A stretch of 64,000 nucleotides of DNA from Bdellovibrionales bacterium (lineage in GTDB: Bacteria; Bdellovibrionota; Bdellovibrionia; Bdellovibrionales; UBA1609), in assembly GCA_965219095.1 (NCBI GenBank), contig CBDCMT010000001.1, positions 928,001 to 992,000 on the forward strand, read 5' to 3'. A program made the position numbers and the translations under genes. Below, in pieces: positions 13,937-26,545 of the stretch; the stretch's first letter is position 1, and every line of letters starts with the position of its first letter. The notes under the pieces were generated by a model. The model was not told where the DNA came from, made no database searches, and saw only the letters and a program-made list of their open reading frames with translations.

Positions 13937-14554
13937 GTGAATATGAGATCTATTTTTATTTATTTTTTGTTTTTATTTATGGTTCCTTTTTCCGTTCACG
14001 GTATAAAAGTAGGTACGTATTTCGTTGGCTTTGATTGGGTAAACTTTCATGAAGTGGATAAAAACCAACTCTATCGAGCAGCCCAAATGGATCCAAAGAT
14101 ATTGCAGGAGACTATAGAAGACTATGGCATTCAGACGGTAATAAATTTAAGAGGAGCAAAAGAACATAAGAAATGGTACCGAAAAGAGGTGCAAGTAGTG
14201 GAGGATACGGGTGTTGAGTATATTAGCATTAGAATGAGGGCAGGGACTCTTCCTAGAAAGGAAAACTTGGTGGAGCTTTTAGATGCATATAGGAGTGCTC
14301 CTAAGCCTATTTTAATTCACTGTGAGTCGGGAGCAGATAGAACAGGAGAAGCTGCAGCTCTTTACCAGATAGAACATATGAATATTAGCAAAAAAAAAGC
14401 TTCTAAGAAGTCCCTTTCTATGTACTATGCTCATATTGCTTTCCTTTGGCCAGCAAAAAAGTATTTTGTGGAAGAAGTGTATCAGGACTATAGGTGGGCT
14501 GTCGAAGAATATGATCCTTGTGCATACTCTTTTGCTCCTAGTAGTTGTGAGTGA
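13937..14554 (+). CDS. Exported protein-tyrosine/dual-specificity phosphatase family protein
   Basis: Signal peptide, LYRAAQ, VINLRG, P-loop HCESGADRTG. Confidence 0.88.
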   Translation: MNMRSIFIYFLFLFMVPFSVHGIKVGTYFVGFDWVNFHEVDKNQLYRAAQMDPKILQETIEDYGIQTVINLRGAKEHKKWYRKEVQVVEDTGVEYISIRMRAGTLPRKENLVELLDAYRSAPKPILIHCESGADRTGEAAALYQIEHMNISKKKASKKSLSMYYAHIAFLWPAKKYFVEEVYQDYRWAVEEYDPCAYSFAPSSCE

Positions 14555-14581
14555 AAACCTGTGAGCCTGTAAAGAATCGTT

Positions 14582-15373
14582 TTAAACTGATCTTTTTTCT
14601 AAAACTTCTTCTTGTTTGAAAAAAGATTTTAATCGTACTCTAAGCTTCTGAATGGCTTGAGCATGAAGCTGTGACACACGACTTTCTGTAACTCTTAAGA
14701 CTTGTCCAATTTCTTTTAATCTTAGTTCTTCGTAGTAATACAGAACTAAGACAAGCCTTTGTCTTTCAGGAAGTTCATTGAGTACTCTTGTAAGAATTCT
14801 TTGCAAAGCTGTCATATCAAGAGATAGATGAGGGTTACTCATCTTACAAACTTCTAAAATGCTCATAAGAGACTTTTTATCCACGTTGCTGTAGGTTGAA
14901 GGTTCATCAATTGATAAAATACTGATCGGCCTAACTGCATTAACTAGTTCGTAATACTGATCAAGACTTAAGTTCATATAATCAGCAATTTCTTGATCAG
15001 TAACATATCTTCCTTTTTCCATTTCTAAATCAGAAACAGTTTTATCTAAGTGCTTAGCTTTATCTCTCAAAGAACGAGGAACCCAGTCCTTAGATCTTAA
15101 TTCATCTAAAATTGCTCCACGAATACGAAACTCAGCATAGGTTTTAAACTTGTTTTTTCTTTCAGGATCGTATTTTTTCACAGCATCCATAAGCCCTATA
15201 ATACCACTGGAAATAAGATCATCGAGTTCAATGTTAGATGGCAATCTTAAAGCGATCTTTTGAGCCACAAACCTTACAATAGGTGCATACTCTAAGATAA
15301 TGTCTTCTAGATCCTTGTCTGTAAGCTCTTTATTCTCCTTGAGTTTTTTCTCTAAAAGATCTCTTTTTGACAC
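14582..15373 (-). CDS. fliA: RNA polymerase sigma-28 factor
   Basis: DDLISSGIIGL, FKTYAEFRIRGAILDELRSKDWVPRS, LKEIGQVLRVTESRVSQLH. Confidence 0.96.
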   Translation of the reverse strand: MSKRDLLEKKLKENKELTDKDLEDIILEYAPIVRFVAQKIALRLPSNIELDDLISSGIIGLMDAVKKYDPERKNKFKTYAEFRIRGAILDELRSKDWVPRSLRDKAKHLDKTVSDLEMEKGRYVTDQEIADYMNLSLDQYYELVNAVRPISILSIDEPSTYSNVDKKSLMSILEVCKMSNPHLSLDMTALQRILTRVLNELPERQRLVLVLYYYEELRLKEIGQVLRVTESRVSQLHAQAIQKLRVRLKSFFKQEEVLEKRSV

Positions 15374-15520
15374 AACTCCCCCCCTTTCTATAAGTTTAAA
15401 AAGAAATTTATAAAATTAAAAGTCCTGAACAAGGCTAGAATCTATCTAGACAACAGCCTAGAAGCTATAACCTACTTAATATATGTCATTTTTTTAATTT
15501 TTAAGATTTTTTTGTGTTTT

Positions 15521-16672
15521 TTAAAGCATCTCATTATGAGACACTTTTGGGCTTTTAGATAAAAAGTTATTTTTAAAATCTGCGAATTCAAAAATCAAAC
15601 TGACAAGCCTTTCTTTTTGAGCTTTTTCAAAGCTATGGGGAATTTCAGGGCCTGAACTAAAGGAATGAAGGGGGCTTTGAAAGTATCTTTGAAAGTTGAA
15701 CATCATACCATAGTTATGCACTTGATCTAGATAAGAAAAGATCACATCATCAAAGCAAAAAAGAGCTTTATAGCGACCAGCTGTCTTGAAGCCTTGTTCT
15801 TCCTTTTCTTTTAAAGACTGAACAAAATGTACAGTGTATCTTATATTTTCAGGGGGAAGAAGACGCTTTAAGGAGCAATAAGCTAACTCATCTTCTAAAT
15901 CATAACTGGGACAATCCGTTAAAATGCAATCAAAATGCTTGAGCTTTTCATAAGCCTTATACCAATCTGAGGGCTTGCGAATCACTCCAAAGGGAACTTC
16001 TAGAGCTTGAGCATGGCGTTTTAATTGTTCAGTATTCTCTTCACATAAAGACAAAATCCCTATTTTCTTTCTTTGTTTTTTAAGTGCATAAGCATATTTA
16101 ATTAAGCAAGTAGTTTTTCCGCTTTTTTCACCTCCAACAAAGCACTGAAAAAGGTTTTTGTCAGAATTTGCTATCTCTATTTGACTCATAATATACTTAC
16201 AGACTTGAGCTTTCACTAAAGATATATTTCTTAAAAGATGTCTTGGCGTTGTCGCTTCAACAGATTTGACAATTTCAAAAGAGTACTCTGGACGAATGCC
16301 AGAGCAAATCATCTGTTTAAAAATTTTTTCAACCAACCTTGAAGGATCGTAATTAGAGTCATTTTTCTGAATATGATAGTTTTTTAAATGAGACTTTAAA
16401 ATAGAAAGCTCTTTTTGTAGCTTCAAAAAACCCTGTTTTTCTTCTTTTTGTTTTTCCTGCTCCATAAGATAATTATAAGAAAGTGCTTGTGGGGAGGTTT
16501 TTAGAGCCTTTTTATGATCCACAGCAGTGACTTCAACGCTTCTCTCCCCTGCTAAACCAAAAGTTTTTTTGTATTCTTTTATAGAAAGTACAATAGCCTC
16601 ACTTCCCATTTCTTTTTTTACAAGGCAAAGTGCATCCTTTAAACTCTTTGCTTCAAATTTTCGAATCTTCAT
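15521..16672 (-). CDS. flhF: FlhF-like SRP GTPase with degenerate G-motifs
   Basis: N-terminal MKIRKFEAKSLKDAL..VKKEMGSEAIVLS and synteny; G1 GGEKSGKTT, G3 DCPS, G4 SYLD. Confidence 0.85.
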   Translation of the reverse strand: MKIRKFEAKSLKDALCLVKKEMGSEAIVLSIKEYKKTFGLAGERSVEVTAVDHKKALKTSPQALSYNYLMEQEKQKEEKQGFLKLQKELSILKSHLKNYHIQKNDSNYDPSRLVEKIFKQMICSGIRPEYSFEIVKSVEATTPRHLLRNISLVKAQVCKYIMSQIEIANSDKNLFQCFVGGEKSGKTTCLIKYAYALKKQRKKIGILSLCEENTEQLKRHAQALEVPFGVIRKPSDWYKAYEKLKHFDCILTDCPSYDLEDELAYCSLKRLLPPENIRYTVHFVQSLKEKEEQGFKTAGRYKALFCFDDVIFSYLDQVHNYGMMFNFQRYFQSPLHSFSSGPEIPHSFEKAQKERLVSLIFEFADFKNNFLSKSPKVSHNEML

Positions 16673-18431
16673 CTTGTTTTAGCTTTTGAGAACTCCTCTT
16701 TATTCTTTCTTTAACATTTTTTAAAAGCTCTTCTTGATTTGAAGAAAACTCTATTTCCTCAGAAATAATTTCAAAAATCATAAAAGCTTCTCTAATAGAG
16801 CCTTCCTCTTCCAATAAAGTTTTTAAAATATAAAAAAGCTGTGTCATAGAAATTTTTTCAGGAATCAATTCAGAACACATATAAGGCTGATCTATCTTGA
16901 TTCTTTCAAACCATTTTTTAGCCTCTAAACGAGTAAAAAGCAAAGCCGCATGGGTCTGCAAAACATGTTTTATGCGATAAGACAGCACTTGTTCAGGTTG
17001 AAAAACACGACATCCTTGAAGGGATGCTTTTTTTTCATCATCTTTAGAAATCCAATAGCTGGGAAGCCCCCAAATAGGTTCACTTGATTCAAAGCCGCAA
17101 AAAAACTCCAAATGCCTCTCATCCTCTATTAGAACAAGAAGTCTTCTTACAGGAATTCTTTCTTCGTAAATTACTTTTCCTTTGATAAAAAGTCTTACTT
17201 CTCCTGTTTTTAAATCCAAATTATCTCTTATTTGAATAAAAGGAATTTTATACCCCATGGAACGGCACAATTCTTTGCGCACACGAGAGAGTTCATGTAA
17301 AAAAGAAGATAGACAAGGAGTCCAATCATACGACATCTGTATTTCTAAAGGACTTGTGCTAATAAGCAAATGATCTTGTTTTTCACTTTGTAAAAAAGTA
17401 GATGAAGATTTTTTTTCTAATTGTTTTATAGATCTTAAGAGAAAGGGGGGCTTTCTTATTTCCGAAACCTCACTTTCTTTCTTAAAAGATGAGAGATAGG
17501 CTATAAGAAATAAACTGACAGAGGTTGTCATAAACAGAAAAACCGGAACTCCTGGTAAAAGACCTATGAACATCAAAATAAAGGCTACAGAATAAATAGT
17601 TTTAGATTGAAAAAGCTCTTTACTTAAAGTTTTAAGCAAGGTCTGAGAGCGACGACTTCCTGTAATTAGGATACCTGCTGAAATGGAAATTAAAACAGCC
17701 GGTATCTGATTGGCCAAACCGTCTCCTATAGTCAACATAGTGTAATGATTTGAAGACTCAGAGAAACTCAAGCCTTTTTGAAAAACACCAATAACAATAC
17801 CTCCTACAAGATTTAGAGCCATAATACAGAGGCTTGCTATAGCATCTCCCCTCAAAAATTTACTAGCACCATCCATAGCTCCATAAAAATCAGATTCTCT
17901 TTCAAGATTTTCTCTTTTCTTCTGTGCTTGTTCTTCTGTAAGATGGCCTGCTTTAAGTTCTGATTCAATAGACATTTGTTTTCCTGGTAAAGCATCAAGT
18001 GTAAAACGAGCTACAACCTCTGCAACTCTCTGAGATCCATTAGAAATCACAATAAAATTTACAAGAACAAGGGTTAGAAAAATCACAAAACCAATGACAA
18101 TATTATTATCACTCACAAGATAACCAAAAAAAGAAATAATTGATCCCACAGCTTCTGTTCCATAATGGCCTTCTGTGAGAATCTTCCGTGTCGAAGCCAC
18201 ATTCAAACAAAGTCTAAAAAAAGTTGTCAAAAGCAATAGCACAGGAAAGACGCTAAAATGAGAAAAATTTTCTGATTTGACCGTCACAATAAGAACGAAC
18301 AAAGAAAAAGTCAAAGACATCATTAGGCCTATGTCTAAGGCTAAAGAGGAAACGGGAAATAGCATAAAGAATAAAGAACTTATGAAAAGGCCTATCATAA
18401 ACATCTCTAAGAACTGAAATCTTTTGATCAT
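16653..18431 (-). CDS. flhA: Flagellar export protein FlhA, C-terminally shortened (592 aa)
   Basis: FRLCLNVASTR, RVAEVVARFTLDALPGKQMSI, FYGAMDGASKF, LTIGDGL, IRDNLDL. Confidence 0.93.
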   Translation of the reverse strand: MIKRFQFLEMFMIGLFISSLFFMLFPVSSLALDIGLMMSLTFSLFVLIVTVKSENFSHFSVFPVLLLLTTFFRLCLNVASTRKILTEGHYGTEAVGSIISFFGYLVSDNNIVIGFVIFLTLVLVNFIVISNGSQRVAEVVARFTLDALPGKQMSIESELKAGHLTEEQAQKKRENLERESDFYGAMDGASKFLRGDAIASLCIMALNLVGGIVIGVFQKGLSFSESSNHYTMLTIGDGLANQIPAVLISISAGILITGSRRSQTLLKTLSKELFQSKTIYSVAFILMFIGLLPGVPVFLFMTTSVSLFLIAYLSSFKKESEVSEIRKPPFLLRSIKQLEKKSSSTFLQSEKQDHLLISTSPLEIQMSYDWTPCLSSFLHELSRVRKELCRSMGYKIPFIQIRDNLDLKTGEVRLFIKGKVIYEERIPVRRLLVLIEDERHLEFFCGFESSEPIWGLPSYWISKDDEKKASLQGCRVFQPEQVLSYRIKHVLQTHAALLFTRLEAKKWFERIKIDQPYMCSELIPEKISMTQLFYILKTLLEEEGSIREAFMIFEIISEEIEFSSNQEELLKNVKERIKRSSQKLKQDEDSKI

Positions 18432-19087
18432 TTTCTATTCCTCATTTTGTTTTTTATGAAACTCCACCGACCAGCTTCTTTCATTTCCCTTCTAGCTTCG
18501 TAATAAGAGACAAGGAGATCTTTTTGATACTCATAGTAGGAACAAATCTGATCTAAGGCAGATGATAGAAAAGACATTCCTAAGAAGAAAATTAGAATAT
18601 AAAAGATAGATGTTTTTACAAAAGTAATTTGATCTTCTATAGAAGAGGTTGCAAAAAGTCCAAGCTCTAAAGAAAGCAAATAATTTATAAGAATGACAAC
18701 TAAAATCATGAAAAGGATCCACTGAAAGAGAAGAGAGATAAGCTTTTCTTTGTTTTCTAATTTCAACTTTATAGGCTTAAAAAAACTTTTCTTAAAATGA
18801 AAACCTTTAGTAAAATGCTGGAAAAGAAAATGCATAACCCAAAAACTTACAAAGGGACTTAAGATTAACAAAAGATCCGAAAAACTTATGAATAACATTT
18901 TATTCCAAGACCTAGGATCTATAGATTGTTTTAAAATTTCGATAATTTTTGAAAAATAAATATCAGAAAACTTCATAAAAAAAATAAGCAAAAGAAAGCT
19001 AAAAACAGTTGACCAAGAACGAGAAAAAAGCTCTCTTTTTTCTTCTTTAAATTGCTTTTCCTTTAAAAAACTTTTATACTGTTTCAT
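18428..19087 (-). CDS. flhB: FlhB membrane domain only (no NPTH/cytoplasmic domain)
   Basis: Between fliR and flhA; TM segments; ends at the D....Y...L....E.R.E.KE linker; stop overlaps the flhA start. Confidence 0.75.
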   Translation of the reverse strand: MKQYKSFLKEKQFKEEKRELFSRSWSTVFSFLLLIFFMKFSDIYFSKIIEILKQSIDPRSWNKMLFISFSDLLLILSPFVSFWVMHFLFQHFTKGFHFKKSFFKPIKLKLENKEKLISLLFQWILFMILVVILINYLLSLELGLFATSSIEDQITFVKTSIFYILIFFLGMSFLSSALDQICSYYEYQKDLLVSYYEARREMKEAGRWSFIKNKMRNRK

Positions 19088-19088
19088 A

Positions 19089-19805
19089 TCACACTACCTT
19101 CATCCAATAGAACATTCTCTCTAAAGAAAATTGGATTAAGCTATTTACAAAGTCTGATAAAAAAGGAAGGTAAGTTAAGAAGATAAAGAGAAAAGCTCCA
19201 AAAGCAAGCATTGTATCAGAAAGAAAAGTTCTCAAATAAGGAGACCATCGGTAAGTCAACAAAGTTAAAACTCTAAGAAGGAAAATACATATGACAAAAG
19301 GCAGGGACAGTCTCAATCCTATCTCCACAATTTGCTGAAAAAATAAAGACCAACTAAAACCATCAAAGTGAATCCAGTCATTTGATATAGGTAAAAGTTC
19401 GAAACTTTTCAAAAGAGCTGAAACAAAAGCATAATGTCCGTTTAAGCAGAAAAACAAAACTGTGATCAAAATAATTTGAAAATCGGAAAAAATATCCTCT
19501 CCTTCTATTTGATGGTGAAAAAAGGTAGCCTGAATCAAATTTCCTGAAATATGAGAAGCTACAAAAAAAATACGACTTAAAAACCCTAGAGAAAAGCCAA
19601 TAAAAATCTCTTTAAAGCCTATCCAAAAAAGACCTGTTTTTGGCAAGTGAGGTGTTTCCTGAATCAAAAGAGGGAACAACATAATCGAAAGACCAAAAGC
19701 TAATGTAAATTTAATAAAAAAAGATACCCTGATTTTATCAAAAACAGGCCAAATCATAAGAAACGTCAACATACGCAATGAAATGAAAAAAAAGGACTCC
19801 ATCAC
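19089..19805 (-). CDS. fliR: Flagellar export gate FliR
   Basis: KEIFIGFSLG, LFFCLNGHY..V.AL.KSF.LLP, LRLSLP; synteny. Confidence 0.88.
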   Translation of the reverse strand: MMESFFFISLRMLTFLMIWPVFDKIRVSFFIKFTLAFGLSIMLFPLLIQETPHLPKTGLFWIGFKEIFIGFSLGFLSRIFFVASHISGNLIQATFFHHQIEGEDIFSDFQIILITVLFFCLNGHYAFVSALLKSFELLPISNDWIHFDGFSWSLFFQQIVEIGLRLSLPFVICIFLLRVLTLLTYRWSPYLRTFLSDTMLAFGAFLFIFLTYLPFLSDFVNSLIQFSLERMFYWMKVV

Positions 19806-20077
19806 AGGGGAACTCCTTTGAGTGAAGGAATTATATGAAATATCTCCTTTGTAAATTCTAGAATCATATCAAACATCCAAGGGCTTAGAACTATAAGGAC
19901 TATAGAAAGAACGATAACTTTGGGTACAAAGCTTAAACTTGCTTCTTGGACCTGGGTCATGGCTTGGAAAAAACCTAAAAGTAAACCTACAGCTAAAGAT
20001 GTTACTAGTAAAGGAGAAGCTAACATAGCTGTCACTTTAAAAGCCTCTTGAGTTAAATTCAACATAATATCTTCCAT
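19802..20077 (-). CDS. fliQ: Flagellar export gate FliQ
   Basis: GLLLGFFQAMTQVQEASLSFVPK. Confidence 0.95.
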   Translation of the reverse strand: MEDIMLNLTQEAFKVTAMLASPLLVTSLAVGLLLGFFQAMTQVQEASLSFVPKVIVLSIVLIVLSPWMFDMILEFTKEIFHIIPSLKGVPL

Positions 20078-20084
20078 AAAACCT

Positions 20085-20786
20085 CTAATAAAAACTCTTT
20101 ACAAGAGCGTCTGTTAACAAAGACCATCCATCAACAAATAAAAACAACATAATTTTTAAAGGTAAAGAAATAGTAAAAGGTGATAAAGCCATCATACCCA
20201 TAGACATAAGGAGTCCTGCCACAACTAAGTCAATAATAAGAAAAGGTATGTAAATGATAAAACCTATTTGAAATGCGGTTTTCAATTCAGAAAGGACAAA
20301 GGCTGGCAGTAAAGCCATATTTTTTTCTTCTTGATCTTGTTTTTTACTTAGTTTTTGAAACAATTGAAGGTCTTGTGGTCTTGTTTGATTCAGCATAAAA
20401 GCTTTCAGAGGCTTAAAGCCTTCCTCTAAAGCTTCTTTTTGAGAAATTTTTTCTTCAGCATAAGGTTGGAGGCTTTTGTTATAGATTTTTTCAAAAGAAG
20501 ATGACATGATGAAAAATGTGAGAAGCAAGGACAAACCTATAAGAAGCTGGTAAGGTAAAAGTTGGGAAAGACCTAAAGCTTGTCTTAAAAAAGAAAAGAT
20601 AATAATAAGGCGGGTAAAGCTTGTCATCATAATTAAAGCAATAGGTATGAGGGCTATCGCTACAAAGTTCATAACAACCTTTAAAGAACCTGCTATATCT
20701 TGGGAGTGATCGAGAAAAGAAATCAAATCCCCAGCCCAGGAGGTCAAAGGAAAAAACAGAAAAAGTAGAAGTAATTTTATTTTCAA
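20085..20786 (-). CDS. fliP: Flagellar export gate FliP
   Basis: MMTSFTRLIIIFSFLRQALG, PAFVLSELKTAFQIGF, ISLPLKIMLFLFVDGW. Confidence 0.96.
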   Translation of the reverse strand: MKIKLLLLFLFFPLTSWAGDLISFLDHSQDIAGSLKVVMNFVAIALIPIALIMMTSFTRLIIIFSFLRQALGLSQLLPYQLLIGLSLLLTFFIMSSSFEKIYNKSLQPYAEEKISQKEALEEGFKPLKAFMLNQTRPQDLQLFQKLSKKQDQEEKNMALLPAFVLSELKTAFQIGFIIYIPFLIIDLVVAGLLMSMGMMALSPFTISLPLKIMLFLFVDGWSLLTDALVKSFY

Positions 20787-20787
20787 T

Positions 20788-21744
20788 TCAAGACACCTCT
20801 TCTGTAAATTTCAGCTCACTGTATTTATGAGGAGCTACTTCACAAGATGTCTGTTCTTTTTGAGTGTGATTTTTTAAAGGGCTTTGAGAGGGAAGTTTTT
20901 TAAGAAAAGATATATTATAGTCAGTAATTCCTAAAAGTAAAAACTCATCACCAATCTTCACAATAGATAAACTTTTTTTAGTACCTAAATAGTGCTGGTG
21001 GATGATTTCCATAGAGTAATTTTTGTTTTTGAAAAGAGGAGGGGTAAAAACATTCTTTTTTTTCCAAAATAAGAGCAAAAGCGTTCCTAAGAGAAGAAAA
21101 GATAAGAGTCCAAAAAACTTAGACAAAAAAGAAGATTGCTTATGGTTTAAACTTTCAAGTTTTGAAGGTTTTTTTAGCTGTAAGGCTTTCTGTGATGAAA
21201 ACTCTTGTGAGGGGTTTTTTTTTGAAAGGACTTTTTTTCTGAACTTCTGACTGTTCTTTGTTGTTTTCCTAAACTTTGATTCCCCCGTTCTTTTTAAACC
21301 CTTTGTTGTAGCTAAAAGAGGTGCTGTAAAAGAACGGTTTGCACCTTGTTTAATAGCTATACGGAGCATATGAGAGCTAAAAGACAGATTGACTTTTCCT
21401 GAAAAATCTTTCGCTTGGAACTTTTTTTGATAAATGATCCGAGTCCTTAATATTTTTTTATTGAATTGATAAATATAAATACTTTTTACTTTGTCATTTT
21501 TTATTTTTTTTACAAACGGCTTCTTTAAGAAACCTCCAGGAATGTTTACCTGAACAGTCTGGTTAATGTAATCTACAGAAACTTTTTCAAAGTCTATGGT
21601 GTTATCGAAAATAAGCTCAGTAATAAACCAGTCTTTTTCTTGATAGGAATAAAAGTCTTCAAGATAGGATGTTTCCAAAAGAGAGGCACTTGACAAGGGA
21701 AAGTAGAAAAAGACTCCTAAAAAATATATGATGAATTTAAACAT
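20788..21744 (-). CDS. fliO: FliO/FliZ-like flagellar biosynthesis protein with extended periplasmic N-terminus
   Basis: C-terminal TM then IIHQHYLGTKKSLSIVKIGDEFLLLGITDYNISFL. Confidence 0.8.
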   Translation of the reverse strand: MFKFIIYFLGVFFYFPLSSASLLETSYLEDFYSYQEKDWFITELIFDNTIDFEKVSVDYINQTVQVNIPGGFLKKPFVKKIKNDKVKSIYIYQFNKKILRTRIIYQKKFQAKDFSGKVNLSFSSHMLRIAIKQGANRSFTAPLLATTKGLKRTGESKFRKTTKNSQKFRKKVLSKKNPSQEFSSQKALQLKKPSKLESLNHKQSSFLSKFFGLLSFLLLGTLLLLFWKKKNVFTPPLFKNKNYSMEIIHQHYLGTKKSLSIVKIGDEFLLLGITDYNISFLKKLPSQSPLKNHTQKEQTSCEVAPHKYSELKFTEEVS

Positions 21745-21770
21745 AAGCCCTCCTAGCTTTATTGGTTGTA

Positions 21771-22352
21771 TTAAATTCTCTTAAAATTTTTCAAATAAAC
21801 TTGAACAATTTCTCCTTTTGTTAGAAACTGATTTAATCGTGTTTTTATTTTATCCTGTATGAGGTTGACTTTTCTTTCATTAGAAAAATCTGAAAAATCT
21901 GTTTTAGATAACATCATGAGAGAAAATTTTCTTATTTGGTTTTCTGTATTTTTAACCTCTTTTTTAGCAGAATCTTGATTTAAATAAAACTCTACATCCA
22001 AACGGGCTATTTTTTTTCCTGATGAGGAGTTTAAATGTAGTAAAAAATCAGACAACTCAAGTTTAGGACCCTTATGATGAAGTATGATAAAATCTTTCCT
22101 CAAAATTTGATCCGTAATGACAAGTTGCTCATAAGACACCGATCGATTCCACTGAAAGTAAGTTAAAATTAGAAACACAACAATGACTTGAGAGCTTAAG
22201 AAAAGAGAGAGCTTTTTTTTGTTCTCTGAATCGGATTTATTCTCTGAAGGGATGTTGTAGCCAGACTTATAAGCTTCTAGCTTAGAAGCTGTATTATGAC
22301 ACTCCACTTTATAAGCACAGTTATGGTTTTTTTTCATACACTCAAACCTCAA
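21771..22352 (-). CDS. fliL: FliL-like basal-body protein (start uncertain)
   Basis: TM then F.L.L..., QIR....MLS, I..RLNQFLTKGEIVQVY..NF; heads the operon. Confidence 0.7.
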   Translation of the reverse strand: MRFECMKKNHNCAYKVECHNTASKLEAYKSGYNIPSENKSDSENKKKLSLFLSSQVIVVFLILTYFQWNRSVSYEQLVITDQILRKDFIILHHKGPKLELSDFLLHLNSSSGKKIARLDVEFYLNQDSAKKEVKNTENQIRKFSLMMLSKTDFSDFSNERKVNLIQDKIKTRLNQFLTKGEIVQVYLKNFKRI

Positions 22353-22392
22353 TACTTCATTTTACTCTCCGTAGAGAAGAACTACCATAGAG

Positions 22393-22420
22393 CTTTCGGA
22401 CAAAATGCTTGATTTCTTTA
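22393..22420 (-). promoter_or_regulatory. Candidate sigma28 promoter upstream of fliL (TAAA-N16-TCCGAAAG)
   Basis: Partial match to the FliA consensus. Confidence 0.4.
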
Positions 22421-22513
22421 CAAAAACAGTCTCTTTGTCTTATTAAAATAGACTTTTGTGCCCGCTGTCTTAATTTTGACAAGCTTTCCTAATCAAGCTA
22501 TACTTTAGTCCTA

Positions 22514-22990
22514 GTGTTGATTCAAAAGACGTTTTTACATTTTCTTTTTCTCCTTTTTTTCTTTTTTTGTTCTTTTTGTCTAGGAGTGTACTGGAGGGAG
22601 CTTGTTCGACCCTCTCAAGCCACCTCATCTAAATCATATCCCCCCCAGTTGCAACAAAAGTTTAGCTCTTCTAAAACTAGGGCAGGTTTCTCAAAATTGC
22701 AAAAAAAATCAAAACCTCAAACCCATTCTCTTCAAAAGAAAAAAAACTATACCCTGCAAATAGCCTCTTATAGGGATGAAAGAGATGCTGTTTACCACAG
22801 TCTTTCGCTAAAGTCTCAAGGCTATACAGCGTTTTATAGAAAAGCCCTTATACGAAAAAAAACATGGTATCGTGTGTTTATGGGTTTGTTTGACCATTAC
22901 CAAGAAGCACGCACTTTTAAAAACAAACTTATAAGGAAAAATAAATTAAAGGAGGCTTTTGTTTTTAAACTTCATGAACCATCACTCTAA
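22514..22990 (+). CDS. SPOR domain protein
   Basis: N-terminal TM; YTLQIASY, WYRVFMGLF. Confidence 0.85.
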   Translation: MLIQKTFLHFLFLLFFFFCSFCLGVYWRELVRPSQATSSKSYPPQLQQKFSSSKTRAGFSKLQKKSKPQTHSLQKKKNYTLQIASYRDERDAVYHSLSLKSQGYTAFYRKALIRKKTWYRVFMGLFDHYQEARTFKNKLIRKNKLKEAFVFKLHEPSL

Positions 22991-25256: not shown

Positions 25257-25498
25257 CAAAACAAAAAGGGAACAAAATTTTGTCATTTTGATCTTAAAAA
25301 ATCAAGCTACCTAACCCTTTGAAATTTAAGACAAAATAAAACAGTAGCAAAAAACTGTTTTACTTTTTAACAACTGATCATATTTTTTACATGTCCTTTT
25401 TCTTGTTTTTCATCAATCATTTCAATAAGTTAAAAATTCTATGGATTTTTTATTTTTTGGCCTTATTTTTGAAGTTCTTAAAAGTAAAGGAGGTTTTT

Positions 25499-26545
25499 AT
25501 GAAAAAATCAAGTCCCATATTTTTAAGCCTTATGACTTTAGTAGCTTTTAACCTATGGTTGGAGCAAACCCCTACAGGAGGAACTGAAATGTTCTCTGAA
25601 TCTGAATGTCCTGAAGAGAATACCTTCACTTCAGAAGACGGAAGGAAATTGTGTTGGGATCCAACTCTAGAACAAGCTACTACGTGTACAGACTGTACAA
25701 ACGCAAAATCGTCAGTTAGGATCAGAGGAGGAATACTTCTTCGCAAAGGAGAGTATTTTACACCCTTTGATGAAGATAAAGTAAATTATGAAGAAATTTG
25801 GCCTGATAAACTTGAAGCCTGTTTTGAAGAAGACTTTTCCGAAGAAGCTAAAAGAACACTTATTAGCCTTTCTAGAATTAATGACGAAAGCCTATCGAGT
25901 AAAAAAGAGGAGTACAAAAAACAACTAGAAAACATCGAAGAGACCTTGAGGGAAGCAAAAAGAGAGGAAGTAAAGAACTTTGATTTCTTTGACGATACAG
26001 AAGATGATAGCTTTAAAGAGAAAGGGAGTGAAATTTGTGCAGGACAAATTGTGCATCTTATGAGTAAAAAAACAGTTGATTGGACTAAAAATCAAAGGTG
26101 GATCAAGGCTCTAAAGACAAAATTTTATAATATTTCTAAGCTTCATAATTTTGCAAAAAAGGTAAGTAAAGAAAAAATAGCTCTTAGTAAAATTAAAGAT
26201 ATTAAAGGCTACATAAATCAAAGGTCTAAGATAGATCAAATAGAAAAAGAACTCTATCAAATCTTTGTTAAAACAGAGGGTAAAGATTTCAAAGATGATT
26301 CTTTTAAAAGTCTTATTTCACAGGTAAAAGAAAATATTAATGATGGCATGATTAGACTTAAAGATGATCTTTTCCACAATAGGTGGGGAAATAATGGAAA
26401 TAGGCGGGAAAATAATGGGAATAGGCGGGAAAATAATGGGAATAGGCGGGAAAATAATGGGAATAGGCGGGAAAATAATAGGAATGAAAACAACTCTAAT
26501 AACCTTTCTCCTATATCTCGCCCTAATAATTTGAGGCCTTTGTGA
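25499..26545 (+). CDS. Exported hypothetical protein with C-terminal NNGNRRE repeats
   Basis: AGGAGG RBS before MKKSSPIF at 25499 (track start 25391); leader, CxxC, coiled-coil-like segment. Confidence 0.65.
   Translation: MKKSSPIFLSLMTLVAFNLWLEQTPTGGTEMFSESECPEENTFTSEDGRKLCWDPTLEQATTCTDCTNAKSSVRIRGGILLRKGEYFTPFDEDKVNYEEIWPDKLEACFEEDFSEEAKRTLISLSRINDESLSSKKEEYKKQLENIEETLREAKREEVKNFDFFDDTEDDSFKEKGSEICAGQIVHLMSKKTVDWTKNQRWIKALKTKFYNISKLHNFAKKVSKEKIALSKIKDIKGYINQRSKIDQIEKELYQIFVKTEGKDFKDDSFKSLISQVKENINDGMIRLKDDLFHNRWGNNGNRRENNGNRRENNGNRRENNGNRRENNRNENNSNNLSPISRPNNLRPL
26378..26482 (+). repeat. 21-bp tandem repeat x5 (AATAGGCGGGAAAATAATGGG)
   Basis: Directly visible; encodes NRRENNG. Confidence 0.9.

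Follow-up and report, generated by a model that had tools for sequence, protein, structure and literature searches.

Of a whole flagellum, one Bdellovibrionales genome retains only an export gate, a clipped FliF and a few regulators. Judging by its sequence, the clipped gate is not decaying and is under long-term selection. There is an even chance that, in this small non-flagellated clade of Bdellovibrionales, the gate works as a late-locked exporter of FlgM that frees sigma-28 (FliA). A wider reading is somewhat more tentative. It holds that the gate is a natural minimal type III device without ATPase, sorting ring, axial structure or switch, serving as a valve for one anti-sigma factor and driving a switch in the life cycle of a predator. 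Such a device would have repeated the shortening from FliF to SctJ independently, and would combine two cuts that arose separately in laboratory selections.

If this is correct, it would be the smallest natural type III export machine that could be found, and an evolutionary test of the current secretion-switch model, in which removing the FlhB C-domain and FlhA D4 locks leaves late export as the default. It marks one route from a flagellum to something else, with a shortened FliF resembling an injectisome ring, and also bears on what controls sigma-28, which regulates the attack phase in Bdellovibrio, after motility loss. No description of the clipped-gate architecture was found in the literature searched, which lay mostly outside subscription journals.

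Inventory of flagellar genes

The genome (2 contigs, 94% complete) is repeat-rich, and repeats of at least three copies make up 36% of it. The genes fliLOPQR, flhB, flhA, flhF and fliA lie at one locus within the window, the whole stretch of 64,000 nucleotides that was analysed; a clipped fliF and an intact flgM lie elsewhere. Genome-wide searches of this 94% complete assembly gave no match to the C-ring proteins FliG, FliM and FliN and none to the ATPase complex FliH/I/J. Three FliI-like matches are non-orthologues, taken as F1 alpha, F1 beta and Rho by size and position. The genome-wide searches likewise found no rod, hook, junction, filament, cap or ruler genes and no MotAB stators, MotB plug or chemoreceptors; of four MotA/ExbB matches, the two near flgM proved to be TolQ in a family scan, and the other two have no MotB plug to pair with. 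No axial or outer-membrane conduit and no injectisome SctN ATPase or SctV/SctJ orthologue was found in the genome, whose single FHIPEP gene and single YscJ/FliF gene are both flagellar-type. As tblastn detected no remnant of the lost flagellar genes, their loss appears to be old while the gate genes are intact.

The initial annotation, made from the locus, had proposed a non-motile, switch-less apparatus independently repurposed from the flagellar gate. The genome-wide inventory agrees: the rest of the flagellum, with C-ring, filament and stators, was not found, and nor was an FlhB C-domain gene. Independent repurposing is likewise supported, and the cuts are common to long-diverged lineages.

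Pfam assignments, family scores and native operon position place FliP, FliQ, FliR, FlhB and FlhA as being of flagellar descent. The gene set of the nanotube CORE, FliOPQR-FlhBA, is thus present, with FlhB and FlhA clipped. Since fliL, fliO, flhF, fliA, flgM, csrA and fliW persist piecemeal in gate-less relatives, only FliPQR, FlhB, FlhA and FliF are special to the lineage.

Layout of the gate operon

All nine genes are open on the minus strand, as first annotated, and each has a Pfam assignment (Table 1). The gaps between fliL and fliO (26 nt) and between flhF and fliA (147 nt) leave no room for fliM, fliN and flhG, as had been noted; in flagellated relatives (locus L034), fliM-fliN and flhG occupy these positions. 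The overlaps of flhB with flhA (4 nt) and of flhA with flhF (20 nt) indicate that the missing DNA was deleted and coupling restored.

Table 1. Features of the gate operon, in window coordinates
Feature	Position	Strand	Remarks
Candidate sigma-28 promoter, fliL operon	22394..22420	-	TAAAG-N16-CCGAAA, one mismatch to the -10 consensus
fliL, 193 aa	21771..22352	-	Pfam; fast-evolving; ATG at 22337 may be the start
fliO, 318 aa	20788..21744	-	FliP assembly chaperone; long N-terminal region of family
fliP, 233 aa	20085..20786	-	Gasket MMM replaced by MMA; retains the equivalents of E178 and D197
fliQ, 91 aa	19802..20077	-	Salt-bridge E46 and K54 equivalents kept
fliR, 238 aa	19089..19805	-	About 7 residues lost at start of plug region
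flhB, 219 aa	18428..19087	-	Membrane domain and start of linker helix
flhA, 592 aa	16653..18431	-	Membrane domain, FHIPEP loop, D1-D3; without D4
flhF, 383 aa	15521..16672	-	Retains N-terminal region and GTPase domain; shorter B-domain linker
fliA (sigma-28), 263 aa	14582..15373	-	Pfam; well conserved

Truncation of FlhB and FlhA

FlhB does stop before the NPTH autocleavage motif, its last residue corresponding to E. coli residue 247, and lacks the C-terminal switch domain. Neither a stand-alone FlhB C-domain nor a second FlhB gene was found genome-wide. The protein is about 18% identical to its relatives; among 635 candidates it recovered only itself, in a word-based search that is insensitive at such divergence. 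In Salmonella, losing both the cleaved FlhB C-domain and Fluke sends FlgM-Bla to the periplasm in the absence of rod-hook and FliK. A stop at residue 258 is enough for this export, which in FlhB-truncated strains required overexpression (PMC13344023). The present FlhB ends about 10 residues short of the shortest permissive allele found.

FlhA was also correctly described as clipped. Relatives have about 698 aa, and its last residue corresponds to E. coli residue 597, 14 residues into D4, which spans residues 584-682 (excerpts of PMC5916509). The same excerpts describe an FlhA ring built by D1-D3 and D3-D3 contacts and, citing earlier work, D4 truncations that allow FlgM into the periplasm. The equivalents of R94, R147, R154, D158, K203, D208, D249 and R391 are kept. 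According to bioRxiv 10.64898/2026.05.20.726703, R391 is required for late switching and ATPase-independent gate activation.

A sister FlhA (P0003, a metagenome protein of 587 aa) is 57% identical, ends at the same column and scores better to the FlhA model than to SctV. Both lineages keep R391 and the membrane charged residues. E351, the partner of R391, is unconserved in relatives and sister, and the chaperone-dimple equivalents F459 and T490 are changed in the present protein. The cytoplasmic domains are about 30% identical to those of full-length relatives, which share about 80% among themselves, and 42-56% identical between the sisters; they were probably strongly remodelled on the stem and conserved between the sisters afterwards. 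In the FlhA tree the clipped clade groups with E. coli; its best hits and synteny are those of Bdellovibrionales, so the grouping is taken for long-branch attraction. A quick RpoB tree gives this genome a long branch (0.95 vs a median of 0.24) and an uncertain position. Searches with this FlhA or P0003 gave no confirmed sister locus in the metagenome and genome collections covered, and none of 384 order genomes held a further clipped-clade FlhA at E <= 1e-150.

FliPQR pore and FliF ring

The gasket methionine is 99% conserved, yet is Ala in all three FliPs of the clade. Gating is required during active secretion only (PMC8239009). Because small gasket residues leak during secretion, the MMA gasket is as compatible with a non-secreting pore as with a slow one.

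FliF is reduced to 316 aa and comprises RBM1-RBM2 only, without RBM3 and the C-terminal tail. Two short FliFs from metagenomes (P0124 and P0125) align with it end to end at 39-46% identity. A tail motif invariant in the three lineages suggests a retained binding role; a predicted complex of this tail with FlhA-C and FlhF scored 0.06 and speaks neither way. The clipped FliF matches the EscJ and PrgK structures, and like these injectisome SctJ proteins it has RBM1-RBM2, a membrane helix and a short tail. SctJ carries a lipoprotein anchor, whereas the clipped FliF has an N-terminal membrane helix, lies much closer to FliF than to SctJ by family-scan score and descends from Bdellovibrionales FliF.

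Proposed release of sigma-28

A secretion role and a regulatory role had both been considered for the locus; the clipped FliF and the distant flgM point to the latter, by FlgM export. FlgM is the sole known flagellar substrate left in the genome, and the genes for FliA and FlgM are both intact. flgM lies at its native site beside a lytic transglycosylase, with flgF-flgJ cleanly gone; its product scores above the family cut-off, begins with the canonical MK[IV] and retains the middle motif.

By analogy with established flagellar biology, FliO would aid FliP assembly, and FliP, FliQ, FliR and the FlhB membrane domain would form a pore, seated in a FliF ring made of RBM1-RBM2 alone. FlhA would still form its D1-D3 ring and draw on the ion-motive force, and FliA would act as the chaperone of FlgM. 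With the FlhB switch domain and FlhA D4 lost, both late-export locks would be gone, and FlgM would reach the periplasm although rod, hook, ruler and ATPase are all missing, freeing sigma-28. Control could lie in the timing of gate building or energising, with FlhF possibly placing the gate, and positive feedback would arise if the gate operon is itself driven by sigma-28.

The attack-phase sigma-28 consensus of Bdellovibrio is TTAAG-N16-CCGATA (PMC3627812). Promoters were scanned by consensus, as the flagellin promoters of relatives gave 0 sites fitting the search pattern for a position-specific matrix. Consensus matches peak at spacer 16 (15 matches; 22 other spacings average 5.5), with patterns that were chosen partly after seeing matches and that agree with the published consensus. 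The candidate motif precedes the type IV pilin gene, a PilZ-like gene, a response regulator and the gate operon. Most likely, sigma-28 release would switch on the pilus and other attack-phase genes.

FlgM export is supported by the coincidence of both cuts with Salmonella alleles reported to unlock it. The reading is weakened by the change of the gasket Met to Ala and the shortened FliR plug, by the changed F459 and T490 and the unconserved partner of R391, and by the absence of ATPase and C-ring, since efficient late export in Salmonella depends on near-wild-type FliI (excerpts of PMC12802181). Further weak points are that whole FlhA or FlhB C-domain deletions are described as assembling without secreting (PMC8239009), and that the Salmonella FlhB truncations needed overexpression and stop later than the present one. 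It is also weakened by the persistence of FlgM and FliA in some gate-less relatives. In the family, FlgM occurs in 55 of 58 relatives with an FlhA vs 9 of the 50 in which FlhA finds no match; two others also carry FlgM-like genes, and FliA is retained in all 10 gate-less relatives tested. One genome (G043) has a near full-length FlgM and no match to FliP, FlhA or flagellin. Sigma-28 is thus manageable without a gate.

Alternative functions

It is rather unlikely that the complex assembles without secreting, serving as a polar membrane scaffold, as a sensor or ion conductor, or as a platform that regulates pili or resembles the nanotube CORE. The joint loss of ATPase, C-ring, FlhB C-domain, D4, gasket methionine and part of the plug would suit such a role, as would the restriction of gating to active secretion and the FliF tail motif. 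FliOPQR-FlhBA is enough for B. subtilis nanotubes, without FliI or FliF (PMC6456723), and Lysobacter gate genes influence twitching (excerpts of PMC7688988). A scaffold would, however, leave unexplained why the cuts coincide with alleles that unlock FlgM export, why the FHIPEP loop (80% identical between the sister FlhAs) and the energy-coupling residues are kept, and why FliF is retained though nanotubes do without it.

Also unlikely is a needle-less exporter delivering non-flagellar proteins, such as envelope enzymes or prey- or host-directed factors, to the periplasm, with FlgM incidental. Lysobacter sends non-flagellar proteins through its flagellar gate (PMC7688988), and the present genome encodes a type IV pilin and further pilin-like proteins. 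The remodelled, then conserved, FlhA cytoplasmic domains and the SctJ-like FliF layout would also be in keeping with new substrates. Such export would nevertheless have to proceed with no ATPase to unfold substrates and no axial or outer-membrane conduit found, and neither the operon nor the surroundings of fliF contain a candidate substrate or chaperone gene.

Selection or decay

The initial annotation had inferred selection, and this stands. Lineages diverged by 43-61% share the cuts and have kept their frames open. When neutral divergence was simulated down to the observed FlhA and FliF identities (300 runs each), a mean of 18 (FlhA) and 16 (FliF) stops accumulated, and 0 of 300 runs was stop-free in either case. 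A slowly decaying remnant, midway through flagellar loss, is therefore very improbable, even though FlhA finds no match in 50 of 109 family genomes, FlhB retains just 9 of 29 invariant columns, and the rate ratios of FlhA, FlhB, FliF and FliL (4.9-5.4) exceed that of RpoB (2.7). FliPQR evolve at the housekeeping rate (2.6-2.8), and the housekeeping control MlaE itself reaches 4.5. That the rest of the flagellum sits in the unassembled 6% of this repeat-rich, two-contig genome is scarcely credible, given deletions inside contiguous native loci (fliL-fliO, flhF-fliA, transglycosylase-flgM and fliF) and a FliF without the RBM3 and tail that would carry a C-ring.

Comparison with known systems

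Buchnera shows a symbiont-type motility loss in which the export apparatus is kept, as a hook-basal body without filament; unlike this genome, it keeps rod, hook and ATPase.

The closest functional counterparts of the proposed FlgM exporter are the late-locked Salmonella laboratory mutants (PMC13344023; D4 truncations as cited in PMC5916509), which likewise do without rod, hook and competing late substrates. The flhB mutants lack the cleaved C-domain in a flk null, rod-hook null strain. As here, FliK is unneeded, FlhB is without its switch domain or FlhA without D4, and FliA and FlgM are present. Those mutants differ in keeping C-ring, FliH/I/J and full FliF and in needing overexpression; in the present genome the two cuts are found together in nature, FlhB has about 10 residues fewer and the pore is sealed differently.

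The B. subtilis nanotube CORE (PMC6456723) has nearly the same gene set and works without FliI, rod or flagellin, but is an additional role of a complete flagellar system whose proteins are full-length, and FliF is dispensable for it. Lysobacter enzymogenes OH11 is also a non-flagellated predator with a repurposed gate; in the excerpts of PMC7688988, it keeps FliI, FliN, FlgC/G/E/D and FlgH/I, its secretion is FliI-dependent, and no domain clipping of its gate is described. The FlhA-FliF-FliI remnant of the likewise non-motile Chlamydia pneumoniae (excerpts of PMC2830194) has an FlhA of 583 aa and a FliF of 342 aa with two membrane segments, a likeness to the 592 and 316 aa here that is one of length only. 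Its flagellar orthologues are FliI, FlhA and FliF, and it has a full injectisome; in the present genome no FliI and no injectisome ATPase or SctV/SctJ orthologue was found, and FliOPQR-FlhB and FlgM of its own stand beside a single FlhA-family gene.

Repeat-free stretch and FlhF

The absence of insertion sequences from the locus had been taken as a sign of selection. The 7.8-kb repeat-free stretch is real, but as strong evidence it is rejected, being expected at about 19% of unique positions. A public contig from a separate assembly, which may share the same sample, covers 13985-22532 with 0 differences and only argues against assembly error. The sequence was found in four sequencing runs of one study, none of the runs listed being RNA, and no usable polymorphism occurred across the sequencing-run contigs.

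FlhF does carry DCPS and SYLD, as first described, but a lineage-specific degeneration is rejected. Among 15 relatives, DTAG occurs in one, TKLD in three and a G3 ending in PS in two, so that these changes are mostly family background. The P-loop still agrees with G-x4-GKT, and the protein retains 32 of 40 invariant columns.

The export gate operon

The genome of this Bdellovibrionales bacterium (GCA_965219095.1, here G000) comprises 3.11 Mb in two contigs (C1 and C2), is 94% complete, and is the only one of its genus in the comparison set. All named matches of its FlhA come from Bdellovibrionales, and in a quick tree its RpoB branch is long (0.95 vs a median of 0.24). The IS load is unusually heavy, with repeats of at least three copies forming 479 blocks and 36% of the genome.

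A public contig and window positions 13985-22532 show zero differences. As the initial annotation had stated, fliM, fliN and flhG are missing from the gate operon: the fliL–fliO gap is merely 26 nt and the flhF–fliA gap 147 nt, where flagellated relatives carry fliM-fliN after fliL and flhG before fliA. FlhB (219 aa) and FlhA (592 aa) are also as short as reported, their last residues aligning to E. coli residues 247 and 597. The FlhF motifs DCPS and SYLD read as first given, but DTAG and TKLD, from which they were thought to have degenerated, occur in just 1 and 3 of 15 relatives. The operon is indeed IS-free, but a repeat-free 7.8 kb arises at about 19% of unique positions.

Flagellar genes lost and retained

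The G000 inventory used E. coli proteins against all six frames, profiles from relatives' flagellar loci, tblastn for gene fragments, and Pfam families with positive controls. By these searches, fliG/M/N, fliH/I/J, fliE, flgB-E, flgG (its profile also covering flgF), flgA/H/I/J, flgK/L/N, fliK, flagellin, fliD, fliS, the MotB plug, chemoreceptors, flhG and any second FlhB were not found genome-wide, in line with the switch-less apparatus proposed initially. It is highly improbable that a missing piece of the assembly hides the rest of the flagellum.

Features of G000 and of relatives (G003, flagellated; G024 and G043, both without a gate match); L numbers are extracted loci
Feature	Position	Strand	Remarks
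fliL-fliO-fliP-fliQ-fliR-flhB-flhA-flhF-fliA	window 22352 to 14582	minus	all frames open
SPOR-domain gene	window 22514-22990		divergent from fliL; 158 aa vs ~265 in relatives
Tyrosine/dual-specificity phosphatase family gene	window 13937-14554		converges on fliA
384-aa ORF	window 25391-26545		short Asn/Arg/Gly-rich tandem repeat at its end
fliF	C2:1413298-1414248 (L049:9299-10249)	minus	outside window; stand-alone, 316 aa vs ~550; adjoins an IS cluster
flgM	ORF C2:1439340-1439657 (L096)		outside window; probably 93 aa from internal GTG; alone beside lytic transglycosylase gene, surrounding flgF-flgL genes removed
fliW	C2:1973718-1974224		outside window; retained apart from csrA; flagellin, part of the usual partner switch, is missing
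csrA	C2:1607651-1607884		outside window
tolQ-tolR-tolA-tolB-like operons	C2:1431346-1434505; C1:625587-628734		two, closely similar
Type IV major pilin gene	C1:411277-411777		near-perfect candidate sigma-28 site 39 nt upstream
flhA, G003	C2:618401-620369		split in two frames near profile position 560; frameshift or assembly error
Rod-protein-like genes, G024 and G043	L165:4063-4722; L187:8659-9399		open, just upstream of flgM; 220-247 aa, FlgF/G profile match

Domain borders and conserved residues

As judged from alignments and predicted structures, the cuts in FlhA and FliF track domain borders. The predicted FliF comprises TM1-RBM1-RBM2-TM2-helix, with structural matches to FliF, EscJ and PrgK; RBM3 was lost through an in-frame internal deletion, and the C-terminal tail, the FliG-binding part, is also lost, while the motif after TM2 is kept. 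FlhA is predicted (mean pLDDT 80) to retain the membrane domain and D1-D3, its end lying beyond the D3 helix. It keeps R391 and charged residues 94, 147, 154, 158, 203, 208 and 249, the latter presumably having roles in energy coupling; F459 and T490 are altered. In Salmonella, D4 spans residues 584-682, and the ring is described as built by D1-D3 and D3-D3 contacts (PMC5916509). FliQ E46/K54 and FliP E178/D197 are retained, the third gasket methionine of FliP is Ala, and about seven residues are missing from the FliR plug region. This Ala occurs in 3/3 FliPs of the clipped clade, at a position reported as 99% conserved among ~2500 homologues (PMC8239009).

Selection in sister lineages

A metagenome FlhA of 587 aa (57% identity) ends in the same column as that of G000, and a second member of the clipped-FlhA clade lies on an 879-kb contig; a FliP with 71% identity, whose two contigs match theirs in length, probably stems from the same contigs as these sister FlhAs. 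Two metagenome FliFs (320 and 325 aa; 46% and 39-41% identity) align with G000 FliF end to end, and all three have the invariant tail LPRTVEELEEWHSE. Neutral substitution to the observed identities, simulated without indels, produced on average 18 stops in FlhA, 16 in FliF and 5 in FliP, with stop-free runs in 0/300, 0/300 and 2/300, respectively. Because the sisters keep the cuts and neutral runs gain stops, decay of a flagellar remnant is very unlikely; the selection assumed by the initial annotation holds, and the existence and selective maintenance of the clipped gate are well supported.

In a tree the clade is fully supported; its stem measures 1.05 and its tips 0.4-0.5 substitutions per site. 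Taken against 3-16 relatives per gene, the approximate rate ratio is 2.7 for RpoB, and six other non-flagellar genes range from 1.5 to 4.5. It is 2.6-2.8 for FliP/Q/R, 3.1 for FliA, 2.2 for FlgM, and 4.9-5.4 for FlhA, FlhB, FliF and FliL. The FHIPEP loop of FlhA is 80% identical between sisters. The cytoplasmic domains of FlhA share only ~30% identity with full-length relatives yet 42-56% between sisters, which we interpret as a phase of remodelling on the stem, after which the sequences were conserved.

Possible function of the gate

We infer an export function for the clipped gate, chiefly by analogy with Salmonella; Fluke, one of the parts removed there, is enterobacterial. Removal of Fluke and the cleaved FlhB C-domain is reported to lock late secretion and abolish early export; FlgM-Bla is then sent to the periplasm even when rod-hook and FliK are absent, and ending FlhB at residue 258 is enough (PMC13344023). 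Truncations of FlhA D4 are said to let FlgM into the periplasm (PMC5916509, citing another paper), R391 is described as needed for late switching and ATPase-independent activation (bioRxiv 10.64898/2026.05.20.726703), and FliA is given as the export chaperone of FlgM (PMC8527033). Both cuts are present in G000, as is FliA, and FlgM is the one known flagellar substrate that it still encodes. A gate with both cuts would stay in the late-secretion state and pass FlgM; such a late-locked FlgM valve is the most economical reading, with about an even chance of being correct. Ion-motive force and substrate excess can reportedly bypass ATPase and C-ring defects (PMC4230889).

Two rivals keep some weight because efficient late export is said to require FliI (PMC12802181), C-domain deletions are stated to assemble without secreting (PMC8239009), FlhB is shorter than the permissive Salmonella allele, the pore seal is loosened, and gate-less genomes also carry FlgM. 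All these points count against the valve. A non-secreting scaffold is nevertheless unlikely, and export of proteins other than FlgM ranks next and is also doubtful.

Known relatives of the system

Of flagellar descent, the system fails membership tests for both flagellum and injectisome. Repurposed flagellar gates are already known as a kind, and FliO has been reported in non-flagellated bacteria (PMC12248157). At 583 aa (FlhA) and 342 aa (FliF), the Chlamydia remnant comes close in length but is described as retaining FliI beside an injectisome (PMC2830194); Lysobacter, unlike G000, is reported to retain ATPase, rod and rings (PMC7688988), and the nanotube CORE is presented as a second job of full-length proteins (PMC6456723), whereas FlhB and FlhA are clipped here. 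A literature search, thin for subscription journals, found no description of the G000 architecture.

Sigma-28 motif

In unique DNA of G000, T[AT]AAG-N-CCGA[AT][AT] occurs 15 times at spacer 16, where 22 other spacings average 5.5, and TAAAG-N16-CCGATA six times vs 0.8; the five pattern pairs tried, chosen partly after seeing matches, all peak in the same register. The Bdellovibrio consensus TTAAG-N16-CCGATA is reported at 92/140 attack-phase promoters (PMC3627812). Candidate sites precede the type IV pilin gene, a CheY-like regulator, several secreted-looking proteins, the fliL operon and a 176-aa PilZ-like gene (labelled by eye).

Relatives with and without a gate

Of the 41 genomes in this comparison, 29 relatives carry FlhA and FliF together with flagellin and rod/hook domains, and 11 lack all of these; only G000 has FlhA and FliF but no flagellin or rod/hook domains. 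FlhA is matched in 59 of 109 family genomes; a complete clipped flhA occurs only in G000, since the remaining short frames either sit at the edge of a contig or continue in a neighbouring frame or contig. FliA is encoded in all ten gate-less relatives tested (out of 11), often still beside fliL, fliO or flhF-flhG, and this repeated retention (L107-L121, L162-L165, L187-L193) suggests non-flagellar roles.

FlgM-like genes occur in 55/58 FlhA-bearing family genomes vs 9/50 without an FlhA match (one of the nine only 78% complete), and in two gate-less genomes from other families. Most of ten gate-less FlgMs inspected match chiefly in the C-terminal half, that of G043 being near full length; G000 FlgM scores above the cut-off of its family and still has the canonical start and the middle motif. 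In several gate-less relatives csrA, mostly with fliW, remains next to flgM.
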